This document shows positions 4,634 through 17,992 of a stretch of DNA of 20,300 bases, one piece after another. The stretch is from positions 1-20,300 of the IMG/VR virus record IMGVR_UViG_2634166457_000006; one strand, given 5' to 3'. Position 1 is the stretch's first letter. Every line of letters begins with the position of its first letter. The translations under genes were made by a program, and so were the position numbers. The stretch is from a virus. Lineage: Duplodnaviria > Heunggongvirae > Uroviricota > Caudoviricetes. The notes under the pieces were generated by a model. It did not search any database, was not told where the DNA came from, and saw nothing but the letters and a program-made list of their open reading frames with translations.

Positions 4634-5211
4634 CCACTATTACCAGAGAAAACGCGGAAATTAAATCATTCATCACTGGTTTCCTGAGCGACCCGGCGCA
4701 CGATAACCAATCTTCAGACAGCCTGCTTGCCAATGTGTTTCGTATCGCACTGGCATCGCTGGAAGCAGAAGCGCCAAGTCTGCCTGGTGGATTTACAATT
4801 AAGGAAACACAAGAACTTTACGAAGATTTGGTTCGAAGCCACATAAGCCAGGCTTTAAGTGGTGAAAAGATGAAAAAGAAAGATCGCGAGGCTGATTTGC
4901 GCTGGATTCATGACGTAATAGTTCAGGCCGCGTGGTTTGTAAAAGCATCACTGGAGAAGAATGCACTATCGGGCACCCCTCCGGTAACTCCGGATGGCTG
5001 GATAAGCTGTAGTGAGCGAATGCCTGAAAAGGGTCAGAACGTGCTTATTTCGATGAATATCGATAGCGAGGCTGGGCCATTAATATATTCCGCACGCTAT
5101 CTCGGAGGCACGTTCCGGCGCGGAGGTATAGCAGTTAGTCCGGGTAATGATCTTGGGCAAGCAACCCACTGGATGCCGCTACCAGAACCGCCGCAGGAGG
5201 CGAATCAATGA
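4630..5211 (+). CDS. DUF551-like phage protein, 193 aa
   Basis: C-terminus ...ATHWMPLPEPP is the characteristic DUF551 end motif of enterobacterial prophage proteins; ATGA overlap with the upstream gene; GAGGA SD. Confidence 0.65.
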   Translation: MTTITRENAEIKSFITGFLSDPAHDNQSSDSLLANVFRIALASLEAEAPSLPGGFTIKETQELYEDLVRSHISQALSGEKMKKKDREADLRWIHDVIVQAAWFVKASLEKNALSGTPPVTPDGWISCSERMPEKGQNVLISMNIDSEAGPLIYSARYLGGTFRRGGIAVSPGNDLGQATHWMPLPEPPQEANQ

Positions 5212-5291
5212 CCTGGCCTGAAGCATTCACAACGGTAGGAATCGCACTGGCGGTGGCGCTGGTGGTGTATTCGATTTGCCGCTGGGGATAA
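5208..5291 (+). CDS. Putative 27-aa hydrophobic micro-protein
   Basis: ATG 5208 overlaps the upstream stop and is preceded by GCAGGAGG at 7-9 nt; product MTWPEAFTTVGIALAVALVVYSICRWG is one predicted transmembrane helix. Not in the ORF track (below cutoff). Confidence 0.3.
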   Translation: MTWPEAFTTVGIALAVALVVYSICRWG

Positions 5292-5297
5292 AAACGG

Positions 5298-5326
5298 TTT
5301 GCGGGAAAAGGAGAGTTAAGTAGAAT
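5298..5326 (+). promoter_or_regulatory. Candidate sigma70 promoter for the hok-type mRNA (-35 TTTGCG, 17-bp spacer, -10 TAGAAT)
   Basis: -10 TAGAAT at 5321-5326; the predicted transcript start falls at the GCGGGTGC element that is complementary to the mRNA 3' end. Confidence 0.4.
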
Positions 5327-5502
5327 TGCAGCGGGTGCTTGAGGCTATCTGTCTCAGGCATGAACACCAAAAGGCAGATAGAGAAAAGCCCCAGTTAACA
5401 TTACGCGTCCTGCAAGACGCTTAACATTAATCTGAGGCTCAATCTATGAACGGCAAATCTAGGTTAGCCTCTTACGTGCCGAAAGGCAAGGAGAAGCAGG
5501 CT

Positions 5503-5658
5503 ATGAAGCAGCAAAAGGCGATGTTAGTCGCCCTGATCGTCATCTGTATTACCGTCATTGTGACGGCACTGGTAACGAGGAAAGACCTCTGCGAGGTACG
5601 AATCCGAACCGGCCAGACGGAGGTCGCTGTCTTCGCAGCTTACGAACCTGAGAAGTAA
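5503..5658 (+). CDS. hok: Hok/Gef-family type I toxin, 51 aa
   Basis: MKQQKAMLVALIVICITVIVTALVTRKDLCEVRIRTGQTEVAVFAAYEPEK closely matches Hok/Gef as recalled (TRKxLCE..R.G..EVA.F.AYE). AAGGAG SD 9 nt upstream. An in-frame upstream ATG at 5446 with GAGG SD gives a mok-like 70-codon frame. Confidence 0.8.
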   Translation: MKQQKAMLVALIVICITVIVTALVTRKDLCEVRIRTGQTEVAVFAAYEPEK

Positions 5659-5716
5659 GAGACCTGGCGGGGGAGAAATCCCTCGCCACCTCTGATGAGT
5701 CAGGCATCCTCAATGC

Positions 5717-5749
5717 ACCCGCACTTAACCTGCTTCGGCGGTTTTTTTC
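5717..5749 (+). terminator. Putative 3' end and terminator of the hok-type mRNA
   Basis: Short GC stem followed by a T7 run at 5742-5748, just downstream of the 3' complementary element. Confidence 0.35.
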
Positions 5750-5867
5750 ACGTACTGTGGTTGTGAATACGATTGGTATTAGGATATGCTAACAACATTA
5801 GCTTGACTAATTTTGTATTGACTTGATTTTTGTTAAAGAACAGGACGGAGAAGTAAGGGGGCACCCA

Positions 5868-6047
5868 ATGAGCTACGCACTAAAAAAACACCCGCGATTG
5901 ACTATTCCCCCTCGCGATAAAAGCGTTGTGGCAGCTCCGCGCCCGGCTATCGATGAAAATTGCACTCATCGTGAGCAGGTGAAAAATGCTTTCGATTTCG
6001 GTTTTTCTCGTTACGAGAAGGCAATGGAAGAACTTTCAAAAGTGTAA
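5868..6047 (+). CDS. Putative antitoxin partner of the Doc-family toxin, 59 aa, not Phd-like
   Basis: ATG 5868 with TAAGGGGG SD; small ORF immediately upstream of, and nearly abutting, the Doc-family gene. Confidence 0.5.
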   Translation: MSYALKKHPRLTIPPRDKSVVAAPRPAIDENCTHREQVKNAFDFGFSRYEKAMEELSKV

Positions 6048-6065
6048 TGATGGGTATTGTGCTCT

Positions 6066-6551
6066 ATGGCTGAGATTGTTGAAGGAGTGCATTACCTTAC
6101 GGTTGATGATCTTGTTGAAATCAATCGTTCCCTAATTGAATTACAGACGCCAGATGAGCCCGTTGGTGTTCTGAGTCCAGATAACTTAAGTTCTTCTCAG
6201 GCCCGTCCCAGCATGGTTCGATGGTATGAACAGACTAATGACATGTTTGTACTGGCATCGGTATTGATTGAAAGTCTGATTCAGAATCATCCGTTTGCTA
6301 ATGCGAACAAACGAACAGCTATGATGGCTGGTTACGTCTTCTTGTTGTTGAATGGCTATGAGTTAACAGCACCAGGCGATGAAATCGTGGAAATGGCAGA
6401 GGGACTGGCCTGCAAAACCTATACTCGAGAAGATCTCGAGAACTGGTTGTGTTATTGGTCTCGCGCGTATGACAGCCGGGAATTATGTAAAACAGGCGCA
6501 ACTATTGTTTTGTATGAAACTATCAAGCTTAAAATAGAACAGCAAAACTAA
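6066..6551 (+). CDS. Doc (death-on-curing) family toxin, Fic/Doc fold
   Basis: HPFANANKRTA motif matches the Doc signature (P1 Doc HIFNDANKRTA) with similar flanking regions. ATG 6066 chosen; the ORF-track start 6057 is TTG. Confidence 0.75.
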   Translation: MAEIVEGVHYLTVDDLVEINRSLIELQTPDEPVGVLSPDNLSSSQARPSMVRWYEQTNDMFVLASVLIESLIQNHPFANANKRTAMMAGYVFLLLNGYELTAPGDEIVEMAEGLACKTYTREDLENWLCYWSRAYDSRELCKTGATIVLYETIKLKIEQQN

Positions 6552-9786: not shown

Positions 9787-9862
9787 GGCCCTTTAGCTCA
9801 GTGGTGAGAGCGAGCGACTCATAATCGCCAGGTCGCTGGTTCAAATCCAGCAAGGGCCACCA
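9787..9862 (+). tRNA. tRNA with CAT anticodon (Met or lysidine-type Ile2)
   Basis: Manual cloverleaf: acceptor GGCCCTT/AAGGGCC, anticodon loop CTCATAA, T-loop TTCAAAT, encoded CCA. Confidence 0.85.
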
Positions 9863-9867
9863 CCTTA

Positions 9868-9944
9868 CCGCCATTAGCTCATCAGGACAGAGCGCCAGCC
9901 TTCGAAGCTGGCTGCGCGGGGTTCGGGTCCCCGGTGGCGGTCCA
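9868..9944 (+). tRNA. tRNA-Arg (anticodon TCG)
   Basis: Manual cloverleaf: acceptor CCGCCAT/GTGGCGG, anticodon stem CCAGC/GCTGG, loop CTTCGAA, T-loop TTCGGGT, encoded CCA. Confidence 0.75.
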
Positions 9945-9957
9945 TAACCGACACCCT

Positions 9958-10034
9958 GCGTTGTCAGCTCAGCCGGACAGAGCAATTGCCTTCTGAGCAA
10001 TCGGTCACTGGTTCGAATCCAGTACGACGCGCCA
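9958..10034 (+). tRNA. tRNA-Arg (anticodon TCT, reads AGA/AGG)
   Basis: Manual cloverleaf: acceptor GCGTTGT/ACGACGC, anticodon stem ATTGC/GCAAT, loop CTTCTGA, T-loop TTCGAAT, encoded CCA. Confidence 0.85.
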
Positions 10035-10046
10035 TATTCTTTTTGC

Positions 10047-10071
10047 TGGCTCGCTTTTGCGGGCCTTTTTT
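10047..10071 (+). terminator. Rho-independent terminator downstream of the tRNA cluster
   Basis: GGCTCGC-tttt-GCGGGCC hairpin followed by T6. Confidence 0.55.
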
Positions 10072-10203
10072 GTCTCCGCGCCACGCCCGGCGCATATCAA
10101 CCACAGAGCCTTTCGGGGGTGAGTTTACGGAGTGGTCAGTGTGACTTTCTCTGTGGGCAGATCGCTCCCGGGCGTTGGCTCACCCACCCAAAGGAATGTC
10201 ACG

Positions 10204-10629
10204 ATGTTTGGTATTTTCAAAAAGAAAACACGCAAGGCCATCACTGAAGTAAAGAAGATGGAGAACCGCGACGCGGTGGAGGCGACCGTCTGGGGCGCAT
10301 ATTCCATTGCATACGCCGACGGCACCTGCGACGCGAAAGAAATCGCGGTACTGGAGAAAACCATTGCTGCACTTCCTGCTTTTGCGCCGTTCTCCGGTGA
10401 GATTGCCCAGATGAGCGCCAATATCCGCGCCCGTTATGAAGCGTCACCGCGTAGCGCGAATGCTCAGGCGTTGCGTGAACTGGCTGACGTGGCAGGAACA
10501 GCAGAAGCGGTTGATGTGCTGTGCCTGTGTCTGGATATCGCAGACCAGGATGGCATTGGTCCGGATGAAGAAGCGCAACTCAAGAAAATTGCGCAGGCGC
10601 TGCAGTTGCCGCTGGAGCAGTACCTGTGA
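10204..10629 (+). CDS. TerB-like (tellurite-resistance-family) domain protein, 141 aa
   Basis: ATG 10204 with AAAGGAA SD; helical pattern with YADGTCDAKE...DQDGIGPDEE resembles the TerB fold as recalled. The ORF-track start 10132 has no SD. Confidence 0.55.
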   Translation: MFGIFKKKTRKAITEVKKMENRDAVEATVWGAYSIAYADGTCDAKEIAVLEKTIAALPAFAPFSGEIAQMSANIRARYEASPRSANAQALRELADVAGTAEAVDVLCLCLDIADQDGIGPDEEAQLKKIAQALQLPLEQYL

Positions 10630-10778
10630 AAAGTGCGCGCCTTGTGCTGGCTGCCATCCTGCTGTTTCTGGTCGTGGCGGTGGACTTCACCAGCAGGATA
10701 ATGTCGGTGCTGGCGGATGGAGCGCTGGTCTGTGGCATTGTGATATTGCTGTGGCCGGTGATGAAAGAAACAGACTGA
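10626..10778 (+). CDS. Putative small membrane protein, 50 aa, two hydrophobic segments
   Basis: GTG 10626 overlaps the TerB-like stop (GTGA) with GGAGCAG upstream; product VKSARLVLAAILLFLVVAVDF...GIVILLWPVM. Below the ORF-track cutoff. Confidence 0.3.
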   Translation: MKSARLVLAAILLFLVVAVDFTSRIMSVLADGALVCGIVILLWPVMKETD

Positions 10779-10992
10779 ATAATGCTTGATTTTTTTATTT
10801 GCTGTTTATTAAAAATACTGCTGCATGGTGAATCCCCCTGAGCGGAGGGGCAATCAGCAAGAAGGAATATGGGATAATCGCGGATTCAGGTGCTGATACT
10901 GAATTCACCGGGAGGCACCCGGCACCATGCACTGCCACAAAAGTGTTATTTCTGTTTTTTCTCAGGCTATCATTGTTATCCCTTTATTTCCG

Positions 10993-11104: not shown

Positions 11105-11989
11105 ATGTCGATTAAACATTACGATGTTGTCAGGGCCGCATCGCCGTCAGACCTTGCGGAAAAGCTGACACAAAAACTGAAAGAAGGCTGGCAGCCGTTT
11201 GGTGGCCCGGTGGCCATAACCCCTTATACCCTGATGCAGGCGGTGACGGCAGAAGGTGATGTGGAGGATGACGTCAGTGGCCCGTCCGGCGGTGAGGGGG
11301 CAGGCTCTGGTGGAGCGGATACCTGTGACACCGCAACCGAAACCGTGCTGTTTTACCGGGCGGCTGATGGCTGGCCTGCAGACCTTGGCTGGACACGGAC
11401 GAACGGAGCCGCAGAGTTCACTGACGACACCGGAGCAGAAAGCGGGAAGGCCCTGCGCATAAGCAAGGATTCAGATGCGGGTGTTTCATGGACGTTAACG
11501 AAAGAGATGCCATCACCGGCTGACCTCCTGACCCGTGGTGGTGTGGTCAGCTGCCGCTTTAAACTGGAAGGCGACCTTGTGGCGAACCAGTACGCGTTTG
11601 CCCTGTACCTTCGTGTCCCGGCAGCCTCATTGCCTGAGGGTGTGACGCTGGCAGAAAGTGGTGGCGCGAACAGCAATCCCTGCCTGCTGGCGTTCTTCAT
11701 ACGGACCGATGCGACCAGAACCAATTTGTATTTCCGCAAACAGAATGACGTCAGTGTCGGGACATATGGTGCCTTTGACAATGAATGGCACACGCTGGAG
11801 CTTCAGTTTGCCGGAAACAGCAGTATTGATGTGACGCCGGTACTTGACGGTACGGCCGGAATGCCGTTCACGCTGACGAAGTCGGCAGTGAATGTTCCGG
11901 AGAATACGTTCACTGTGACAGACACTGCGTCAGCTGCAACTTACAGCACACTGTTTGAGTACGTGACGGTGGAGGTGAATGCAGCGTGA
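11105..11989 (+). CDS. DUF1737-like N-terminal domain protein with a C-terminal beta-rich domain, 294 aa
   Basis: N-terminus MSIKHYDVVRAASPSDLAEKLTQKLKEGWQPFGGP fits the DUF1737 pattern seen in prophage late-region proteins; Gly/acidic linker; C-terminal 200 aa unassigned. GGGAGAAA SD. Confidence 0.55.
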   Translation: MSIKHYDVVRAASPSDLAEKLTQKLKEGWQPFGGPVAITPYTLMQAVTAEGDVEDDVSGPSGGEGAGSGGADTCDTATETVLFYRAADGWPADLGWTRTNGAAEFTDDTGAESGKALRISKDSDAGVSWTLTKEMPSPADLLTRGGVVSCRFKLEGDLVANQYAFALYLRVPAASLPEGVTLAESGGANSNPCLLAFFIRTDATRTNLYFRKQNDVSVGTYGAFDNEWHTLELQFAGNSSIDVTPVLDGTAGMPFTLTKSAVNVPENTFTVTDTASAATYSTLFEYVTVEVNAA

Positions 11990-16334: not shown

Positions 16335-17992
16335 TACCTGTGTGGAGTACGGCCTGCCCGGACTGGGCAGCGCGCCTGAAAAAGGGACTGTCGATTATTC
16401 CGGCTCCGATTTATCCGGACCAGGCCGCACATGCCCTGGCGATTTTTAAACAACTGCGGATTGTTGATGCACCGGGCAGCCCGACGTTCGGGGAGTCCTG
16501 TGCACCGTGGGTGTTTGACCTGGTGGCGGCCCTGTTTGGCTCCTACGATGCGCACACCGGTATCCGTCATATAAAGGAAGTGTTCATTCTGATCCCGAAA
16601 AAAAACAGCAAGTCCACACTGGCTGCCGGGATCATGATGACGGCGCTGTTACTGAACTGGCGGCAGGCGGCGGGCTACACCATTCTGGCCCCGACTGTGG
16701 AGGTGGCGGCTAACGCCTTCAACCCTGCCAGGGATATGGTACGACGGGACGATGATCTGGATGACCTCTGTCAGGTGCAGACACATATCCGGACCATCAC
16801 CCACCGGGTGACGGACACCACCCTGAAGGTGGTGGCAGCCGATCCGAATACGGTGTCCGGTATCAAGTCCGTGGGGACACTGATTGATGAACTGTGGTTG
16901 TTTGGCAAGCAGTATAAAGCGGAGGACATGTTACGTGAAGCCATCGGCGGGCTTGCCTCCCGTCCGGAAGGATTTGTGGTGTACACAACCACCCAGTCGA
17001 ATGAGCCGCCAGCCGGAGTGTTCAGACAGAAACTTCAGTACGCCCGGGATGTCCGTGACGGCAAAATTCATGATCCGCACTTTCTGCCGGTGATTTTTGA
17101 GCATCCGCCGGAGATGGTGGAGAGCGGTGAGCACCTGCTGATGGAAAACCTCGCCATGGTTAACCCGAATCTCGGTTATTCGGTGGATGAGGCCTTTCTG
17201 TACCGGGAGTACCGTAAAGCCCGCGAAGCCGGGGAAGAGACCTTCCGGGGGTTCATGTCAAAACACGCCAATGTGGAAATCGGTCTTGCCCTGCGTTCTG
17301 ACCGCTGGGCGGGGGCGGATTTCTGGGAACAACAGGGCATGTGCGTCAGCCTGGACGATATCCTGCTGCGCGCTGATGTGGTTACGGTGGGGATTGACGG
17401 CGGAGGGCTGGATGATCTGCTGGGGATGTACGTGATTGGGCGTGACCGGGAGACCCGCGAATGGCTGGGGTGGGGCCATGCCTGGGCACATGAAACCGCG
17501 GTGGTCAGACGGAAGAGCGAGGCGTCCCGGTTTCAGGATCTTGTTGCCTGTGGAGATATGACCATTGTCCGGCGTGTCGGGGATGACACGGCGGAAGTGG
17601 CGGAATATGTGCGTCGCATTCATGAGGCTGAGTTACTGGACCATATCGGTATTGATCCGTCAGGTGTGGGGCAAATTCTGGATTCACTGGCGGAAGCCGG
17701 GATCCCCGACGGAATTGTGGTGGGGATAAGCCAGGGCTGGAAACTGGGCGGGGCCATCAAAACCACCGAGCGCAAACTGGCTGAAGGGGTGCTGGTGCAT
17801 GGTGGCCAGCCCCTGATGGCCTGGTGTGTCGGCAATGCCCGGGTGGAGCCTAAAGGTAACGCCATTCTTATTACCAAACAGGCCAGCGGACGGGGAAAAA
17901 TTGACCCGCTGATGGCGCTCTTCAATGCGGTCTCCCTGATGTCCCTGAATCCGGAACCGAAAAAGAAAGCGTATGAGGTTTTTTTCATATAA
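16331..17992 (+). CDS. Terminase large subunit (HK97/Terminase_1-like)
   Basis: 553 aa, placed after TerS with ATGA overlap; N-terminal ATPase-like and C-terminal nuclease-like regions. Confidence 0.8.
   Translation: MIPVWSTACPDWAARLKKGLSIIPAPIYPDQAAHALAIFKQLRIVDAPGSPTFGESCAPWVFDLVAALFGSYDAHTGIRHIKEVFILIPKKNSKSTLAAGIMMTALLLNWRQAAGYTILAPTVEVAANAFNPARDMVRRDDDLDDLCQVQTHIRTITHRVTDTTLKVVAADPNTVSGIKSVGTLIDELWLFGKQYKAEDMLREAIGGLASRPEGFVVYTTTQSNEPPAGVFRQKLQYARDVRDGKIHDPHFLPVIFEHPPEMVESGEHLLMENLAMVNPNLGYSVDEAFLYREYRKAREAGEETFRGFMSKHANVEIGLALRSDRWAGADFWEQQGMCVSLDDILLRADVVTVGIDGGGLDDLLGMYVIGRDRETREWLGWGHAWAHETAVVRRKSEASRFQDLVACGDMTIVRRVGDDTAEVAEYVRRIHEAELLDHIGIDPSGVGQILDSLAEAGIPDGIVVGISQGWKLGGAIKTTERKLAEGVLVHGGQPLMAWCVGNARVEPKGNAILITKQASGRGKIDPLMALFNAVSLMSLNPEPKKKAYEVFFI

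Follow-up and report, generated by a model that had tools for sequence, protein, structure and literature searches.

The question raised by positions 5298-5749 of the window, the 20,300-nucleotide stretch analysed here (positions 1 to 20,300 of the Caudoviricetes record IMGVR_UViG_2634166457_000006), is whether a short toxin gene lying between two complementary RNA ends belongs to a complete type I toxin-antitoxin module. An initial annotation had proposed a Hok/Sok-type locus, and direct reading of 5100-5950 confirmed each sequence feature that it listed at the position it gave. The evidence makes it very probable that 5298-5749 is an intact hok/mok/sok module of the hokD/hokW subtype, situated in the nin region of a lambdoid prophage. 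Family membership, the sequence elements, the predicted closed fold of the mRNA, the predicted refolding of this closed form into an open one, and conservation with covariation are all established for this copy. Features are on the plus strand except for the antisense RNA Sok and its promoter.

The toxin gene, hok, occupies 5503-5658 (ATG at 5503, TAA at 5656-5658) and is preceded by the Shine-Dalgarno (SD) sequence GGAG at 5490-5493. The Hok/Gef architecture initially ascribed to its 51-aa product, MKQQKAMLVALIVICITVIVTALVTRKDLCEVRIRTGQTEVAVFAAYEPEK, was borne out by profile search: Pfam HOK_GEF (PF01848) is matched with 81.6 bits (cut-off 22, E = 2.9e-23), residues 6-47 covering profile positions 1-42 of 42. 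The product has the layout of a Hok/Gef peptide (about 50 aa, an N-terminal hydrophobic helix and a polar C-terminal part with Cys), with a hydrophobic stretch at residues 7-24, Cys30, and a Tyr (Tyr47) where relatives have either Cys or an editable Tyr. At the RNA level, the Rfam family RF01794 (hok/sok RNA) matches 5333-5508 on the plus strand over the full model (1-157), with 112.4 bits against a gathering score of 59. Although RF01794 is named 'sok antitoxin', its model runs in the hok-sense orientation, from the mRNA 5' end to the hok AUG, and the match therefore gives the orientation of hok and not that of Sok.

The exact 51-aa protein is deposited as WP_187531953.1 under the NCBI name 'type I toxin-antitoxin system Hok family toxin', and near-identical members of its cluster are named HokD by RefSeq; by sequence, the window protein appears closer to the HokD/HokW type, and it shares 92% amino-acid identity with the closest copies in species-representative genomes. 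The exact 70-aa Mok is KNA40551.1 of Escherichia coli M114 and is otherwise recorded only from two other contigs, which makes M114 the likely source strain.

The complementarity between the mRNA ends, on which the initial annotation had placed weight, is of the kind described for hok mRNAs. The 5' element GCGGGTGCTTGAGGC (5331-5345) and the 3' element CCTCAATGCACCCGC (5708-5722) make a helix of 14 base pairs interrupted by a single bulged T (5714). The likely transcript includes 12 of the pairs, which join tac (translational activator; GGGUGCUUGAGG, 5333-5344) to fbi (fold-back inhibition; CCUCAAUGCACCC, 5708-5720, with the bulged U at 5714). The minimum free energy (MFE) structure of 5331-5749 (-168.2 kcal/mol, z = -6.1 relative to shuffles) is closed by this end helix, and in the ensemble computed for 5333-5749 each of the 12 tac-fbi pairs has a probability of 0.90-0.998. 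As a control, an R1-type locus folded identically yielded its known end pairing.

Were this complementarity fortuitous, or a mere part of the terminator, regulation would be left to the antisense RNA alone. The raw figures are not extreme, the same duplex energy being reached by 18 of 2000 shuffled 3' untranslated regions and by 4 of 2833 other 14-mers of the window. Because complementarity alone is only moderately rare, its significance is drawn from the Pfam and Rfam scores and from conservation accompanied by compensatory changes. Scanning a single genome of each species gave 56 loci, in most of which a tac-like GCTTGAGGC precedes the hok ATG by about 140-170 nt and its complement, fbi, lies 44-56 nt after the stop codon. 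Twenty-eight distinct loci from six genera (Escherichia, Kluyvera, Photorhabdus, Pantoea, Citrobacter and the Erwinia group) were aligned with MAFFT, and the RNAalifold consensus of this alignment predicted the end pairing unaided, in the same position and register. At tac position 4 the pair is U-A in 16 loci and C-G in 10. Since the bulge shifts register between groups in the MAFFT alignment and precludes a column-wise count, the distal half of the helix was assessed from per-sequence duplexes; by these, double (compensatory) changes occur at tac positions 4, 9, 10, 11 and 12, that is, at 5 of the 12 pairs. Among 12 hokD-type copies tac is invariant. Moreover, homology to the hokW-sokW locus of Sakai prophage 5 (Sp5) runs exactly through fbi and ends right after it, and the equivalent pairing has been functionally established for plasmid R1 (PMC9841398). 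The covariation effectively refutes chance complementarity, an explanation that retains next to no probability.

Folding of shortened transcripts predicted the elements of a refolding switch. In the model described for R1, 3' trimming removes fbi, whereupon tac moves to ucb (upstream complementary box) and the mok SD to dcb (downstream complementary box) (PMC9841398). The corresponding segments of the window are ucb, AAGCCCC at 5386-5392, which is the anti-SD of mok, and dcb, AGCCUC at 5466-5471. In the full-length fold the mok SD, GAGG, is paired to 5388-5392, its four bases being unpaired with probabilities of 0, 0.99, 0 and 0. When the RNA was ended at 5700, the MFE structure was the open form, with 5333-5340 paired to 5386-5392, the mok SD region 5434-5439 paired to dcb, and a free-standing hairpin at 5394-5431. 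A further segment just downstream of tac, 5351-5361, is the local partner of tac in the MFE structure of 5333-5692 and is the analogue of the metastable hairpin; its fold with tac resembles the transient structure described in nascent R1 hok mRNA (PMC9841398).

All folds contained a 10-bp hairpin with a GAAA loop after the stop codon (5665-5688), which is conserved with compensatory changes in the 28-locus alignment (columns 362-388). It is positionally equivalent to the R1 hairpin assigned as the end of the truncated mRNA, whose length we take to be 361 nt, and it is presumed to be the stop point of 3' exonucleolytic processing.

The sense transcript would be read from a promoter at 5299-5326, in which TTGCGG (-35, 5299-5304) and TAGAAT (-10, 5321-5326) are separated by a 16-nt spacer. 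The -10, noted initially as lying just upstream of the 5' element, aligns with the TATGAT of R1 hok and with the upstream regions of hokC and hokB, and the R1 -10 has been validated by mutation (PMC9841398). Alignment to the R1 hok +1 and position 1 of the Rfam model both place the 5' end of the mRNA at 5333, and the U-tract following a weak hairpin places the 3' end at 5749, for an inferred full-length transcript of about 417 nt. The hairpin is a weak intrinsic terminator (5727-5748), seen in the folds, with a 6-bp stem and a UUCG loop followed by U7; the T7 tract recorded after the 3' element is found at 5742-5748. This U7 terminator is common to the window and the closest E. coli copies and is absent from Sp5.

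The in-frame mok-like start noticed at 5446 is an ATG that opens a frame of 70 codons (5446-5658), in frame with hok and containing it, and it is aligned with the mok starts of R1, hokC and hokB. Its SD, GAGG at 5434-5437, lies 8 nt upstream of the ATG and is conserved in the 28-locus alignment. As in the R1 paradigm, hok would be translationally coupled to mok.

Within hok, TACG at the Tyr47 codon (5641-5644) is a candidate site for adenosine-to-inosine editing by TadA, which would change Tyr to Cys. The hexamer TACGAA (5641-5646) is invariant in 28 of 28 aligned loci, synonymous positions included, and is located in a hairpin loop in a local fold. According to a preprint (bioRxiv 10.1101/2025.08.07.668861), the equivalent codon is edited from Tyr to Cys in hokB, hokC, hokD and hokE, and by analogy the full toxicity of the window Hok may depend on RNA editing.

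The one claim of the initial annotation that required revision concerned the antisense RNA, which had been expected at about 5430-5500. Homology places Sok about 50 nt further upstream, on the minus strand, with its 5' end at 5454 and its 3' end at 5378 (about 77 nt). The curated E. coli K-12 sokC (16952-17010) and sokB (1492119-1492175), which start 9 and 11 nt inside their mok frames, both align to these identical window columns. When folded, the predicted Sok has a single-stranded 5' tail, an extended hairpin and a 3' tail rich in U (-33 kcal/mol, z = -5.55), and it is about 17-19 nt longer than other Sok RNAs owing to an insert at the hairpin tip (5403-5419). The published Northern probe for sokW, YO-592 (PMC8621323), corresponds to approximately 5425-5454.

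The range guessed initially does contain the Sok promoter, assigned by homology to 5461-5489 on the minus strand: TTGCCT (-35) runs from 5489 to 5484 and, after a 17-nt spacer, TAACCT (-10) runs from 5466 to 5461, seven nucleotides upstream of the Sok 5' end. This stretch is 100% identical to that of Sp5 hokW-sokW, and GCAAG at 5486-5490 is invariant in the 28 loci. A 'promoter-less' sokW construct lost antitoxin activity (PMC8621323), and by our reading of the primer table in the same source, the mutagenic primer YO-421 from which it resulted departs from the wild-type sequence within the Sok promoter hexamer. For the window locus, the sequence features predict an antisense RNA that is encoded in cis, has a promoter of its own and is complementary to the region where mok translation starts. 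A Sok target range of 65-131 given in PMC3562002 does not fit the R1 +1 of PMC9841398 and was set aside in favour of the annotated sokC and sokB positions.

The mok-side stretch complementary to the 5' tail of Sok (5438-5460, comprising mok codons 1-3 and the preceding spacer) is hypervariable among the 12 hokD-type copies. Pairwise differences per site amounted to 0.36 in the Sok tail and target, as against 0.02 for the hairpin of Sok next to it and 0.06 for the coding region of hok, and it is in the tail and target that the window and sokW diverge most. The variable stretch may set the specificity of Sok for its hok mRNA and so prevent cross-neutralisation among copies in one genome.

Taken together, these elements suggest the following course of events, in which transcription, processing, toxicity and physiological role are taken over from the homologues. 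Following the R1 paradigm, the weak constitutive promoter with its TAGAAT box would yield the mRNA of about 417 nt in a closed form, with tac (5333-5344) held on fbi (5708-5720) and ucb (5386-5392) sequestering the mok SD. In this state neither mok nor the coupled hok would be translated, and Sok would be unable to bind. Slow 3' trimming towards the hairpin at 5665-5688 would remove fbi; tac would then move to ucb and the mok SD to dcb (5466-5471), exposing the Sok target hairpin. For as long as it is made, the unstable 77-nt Sok (5454 to 5378) would pair with the mok initiation region, and RNase III would destroy the duplex. Once Sok synthesis stops, the stored mRNA would be translated, and Hok, a single-pass inner-membrane peptide, would depolarise and kill the cell.

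The experimental record of hokW-sokW supplies the counterpart of these last steps. HokW is toxic and localises to the inner membrane, and the sokW RNA, with 71 nt of complementarity, neutralises it, partly via RNase III and Hfq (PMC8621323). Upon mitomycin C treatment sokW is lost and HokW appears in a RecA-dependent manner; deletion of hokW-sokW delayed growth arrest by about 40 minutes and halved phage release, and uninduced lysogens had no growth phenotype (PMC8621323). For the window locus, this record of a 94%-identical relative suggests that Hok is made when the prophage is induced, that lysis comes earlier and that about twice as much phage is released.

Several observations weigh against an intact module. 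The protein did not reach the NCBIfam cut-offs of NF007279 (49.6 bits against 73) or of the HokA equivalog NF007290 (39.3 against 89), both of which are models built on other Hok subfamilies. Both promoters are weak by consensus, the hok -35 and the Sok -10 each matching at 3 of 6 positions, and a consensus promoter and terminator scan of both strands of 5150-5900 called none; the two promoters and the terminator score below its thresholds. That null result was rejected as evidence that promoters are absent, because the homologous R1 and sokW promoters depart from consensus just as much and yet have experimental support. Where trimming ends decides the outcome of the in-silico switch: with the RNA ended at 5692 rather than 5700, the MFE structure is the local tac hairpin, and the open form, obtained by forcing the tac-ucb fold, lies 4 kcal/mol higher. 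Finally, mok codons 2-5, and hence the Sok 5' tail and its target, differ from those of sokW (ATGAACGGCAAATC in the window, ATGCTGAACACATG in Sp5); Sok and its target change in cis, so complementarity is preserved automatically.

The weakness of the promoters also bears on whether the module, although intact in appearance, could be a relic without physiological activity, as are the hok loci on the E. coli K-12 chromosome, which are either disrupted or incapable of killing although their elements are conserved. The apparently intact chromosomal hokA, hokB and hokC gave no post-segregational killing, according to earlier work as cited in the preprint (bioRxiv 10.1101/2025.08.07.668861), and this likewise counts against activity here, since their inactivity implies that an intact sequence does not guarantee it. 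A relic has, moreover, a precedent in K-12 hokD, which retains only the part from window position 5489 onwards. In the window locus, however, no regulatory element is missing or out of register, and apart from the Sok tail the locus hardly differs from hokW-sokW, which, in the prophage where it naturally resides, is transcribed, regulated and toxic. In addition, copies show almost no variation in tac, the Sok hairpin and the hok SD and ATG (0.00-0.02 differences per site), which speaks for selection still acting on them. Silence of the window copy is accordingly judged improbable, and the reading as an intact module of the hokD/hokW subtype is preferred.

The setting of the module was placed by the initial annotation inside the early region of the prophage, and it does lie between the replication genes and the antiterminator gene Q. 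The genes preceding hok/sok are, in order, YdaT-like, O-type (DnaT domain), lambda-P-type replication, DUF1627, DUF977 and DUF551; those following it encode a Doc-family toxin, DUF968, RusA, antiterminator Q, three tRNAs, holin, lysozyme, Rz, terminase and capsid. All six (pro)phages inspected, that of the window and five others, have hok/sok within the early rightward operon and in its orientation, with the O/P-type replication genes before it and RusA/Q after it; upstream of the module no terminator is predicted. Searches with the entire window gave at most 69% coverage by any complete E. coli genome, at about 92% identity, so that the window prophage is a mosaic of common modules.

DNA related to the locus itself is widespread, being found in 4938 of 5426 complete E. 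coli genomes and with at least 80% query coverage in 3920 of them. The best identity among the E. coli matches was 98.4%, and the matches listed carry the annotation hokD. A genome carries hok copies at a median of 2 places and at up to 9. The locus is also matched by 102 phage records, many of them of Shiga toxin (Stx) phages, with the annotations 'host killer', 'HokD', 'MokW' or 'gef homolog'.

This setting bears on the role of an active module, which might lie mainly in prophage retention or in superinfection exclusion (abortive infection) and not in assisting lysis. Through post-segregational killing the R1 hok/sok system keeps plasmids stable, and when carried by a high-copy plasmid it lowers the plating of T4; hok genes are about fourfold enriched in prophages, where their role is still called open; and the Doc-family toxin gene immediately downstream is what would be expected of an addiction or defence islet. 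On the other side, the sole direct experiment on a prophage copy, that on hokW-sokW, showed that the module acts positively on the timing of lysis and on phage yield and that uninduced lysogens have no growth phenotype, and hok is not enriched beside defence systems. Retention or exclusion as the main role is a serious possibility, albeit an unlikely one; the two roles are not mutually exclusive.

For the intact module as preferred here, a speculative and rather doubtful elaboration would join the placement of the module and its variable Sok tail, in that read-through from the early operon would trigger Hok by shutting off or titrating Sok, and the variable tail would insulate co-resident copies. 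Induced early transcription would run head-on into the convergent Sok promoter and produce an excess of sense RNA carrying the Sok target. Sok would thereby be shut off or titrated, timing the production of Hok ahead of the holin. If true, read-through would explain the RecA-dependent disappearance of sokW reported, and left unexplained, for Sp5, and the hypervariable 5438-5454 would keep prophage copies from cross-neutralising, each prophage timing only its own lysis.

Several neighbouring features are recorded in their own right. Upstream of hok, a 27-codon ORF (open reading frame; 5208-5291, plus strand) encodes the hydrophobic peptide MTWPEAFTTVGIALAVALVVYSICRWG and begins with an ATG that shares bases with the stop codon of the DUF551 gene (ATGA). 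Sp5 and an O177:H21 prophage preserve the frame, the changes being synonymous and conservative. By tblastn it is present in 88 phage records, where it often immediately precedes hok and often has either no annotation or the label 'hypothetical protein'. It is contained in the fragment cloned as hokW-sokW (primer YO-432, PMC8621323).

Downstream, the Doc (death-on-curing) toxin gene at 6057-6551 (plus strand) matches TIGR01550 with 128 bits and Pfam Fic/DOC. A 59-codon ORF (5868-6047) upstream of doc could be its antitoxin; it matched no family in the Pfam and NCBIfam searches. Judged by sequence, the doc segment would be a type II module immediately adjoining the type I hok/sok. Far fewer E. 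coli genomes carry it than carry hok (125 of 5426 for segment 5868-6551), and it is preceded by an AT-rich stretch with two TTGACT boxes (5803-5808 and 5818-5823).

Further along, the region 9787-10981 downstream of Q holds three tRNA genes (Met-CAT, Arg-TCG and Arg-TCT), and the small RNA family STnc100 matches 10797-10981 with 105.8 bits. This layout of tRNAs and STnc100 resembles that upstream of stx in Stx phages. In the region downstream of Q no stx-like ORF was found; it contains a weak TerB-like ORF (10132-10629) and a DUF1737/DUF6645 gene (11105-11989).

The locus is thus a known and ordinary one, correctly identified by the initial annotation. Novelty is low because this type of locus is annotated in thousands of genomes and the Sp5 homologue has been characterised experimentally (PMC8621323). 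Prophage-borne hok/sok is already documented, both by the enrichment of hok in prophages and by hokW-sokW, and nothing of substance is new here: hok/sok is the textbook type I system, and annotations of its hokD/hokW form exist for most E. coli genomes and for many Stx and lambdoid phages.

The closest characterised relative is hokW-sokW of Sp5, a prophage of the Stx2 phage VT2-Sakai/933W type (Takada et al. 2021, PMC8621323). Nucleotide identity between the two loci is 94% over the stretch that starts with the hok promoter and ends with fbi, and both encode a Hok of 51 aa and a Mok of 70 aa, the Mok proteins being 87% identical; they occupy the same place, in the same orientation, in the early region of a lambdoid prophage. 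The Hok C-termini differ (FAAYEPEK in the window, FVDYESEK in HokW). Homology stops a few bases after fbi, where the UUCG hairpin and U7 of the window are replaced in Sp5 by unrelated sequence (window 5722-5760); from this, the mobile unit seems to end at fbi, with terminators supplied by the flank. Unlike the Stx2-type Sp5, the stretch of the window prophage seen here contains no stx genes.

With hok/sok (parB) of R1 the window shares the -10, tac, its metastable partner, ucb, the Sok target hairpin and the mok SD and ATG, and also the predicted convergent Sok promoter, dcb, the hok SD, the 3' hairpin and fbi. The toxins are more distant, a value of 44% identity to R1 Hok having been reported for HokW, the homologue of the window protein (PMC8621323). 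The RNAs differ by insertions: the insert in the window Sok hairpin (5403-5419) amounts to 16 nt relative to the Rfam consensus and to 19 columns relative to R1, and the R1 leader has an additional insert of about 16 nt after tac. The R1 module resides on a plasmid and acts by post-segregational killing, whereas the window copy resides in a prophage.

Among the chromosomal loci of K-12, hokC/sokC and hokB/sokB have leaders homologous to that of the window. Their Sok RNAs are shorter (59 nt for sokC and 57 nt for sokB), an IS186 element begins 20 bp beyond the stop codon of hokC, and mokB is in another frame than hokB, in contrast to the in-frame mok of the window. The toxin of K-12 hokD (relF) is of the same subtype as the window Hok. 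Its match to the window, however, begins only at 5489, so that it is without the hok promoter, tac, ucb, the start of mok and all of the Sok RNA sequence, and retains of the Sok -35 no more than the outer edge. Textbook hokD is therefore the window locus with its 5' part missing. The window copy is complete, and its use is as a clean example of a prophage copy to which, unlike the truncated K-12 hokD, each regulatory RNA element of the R1 paradigm can be assigned with single-nucleotide precision.

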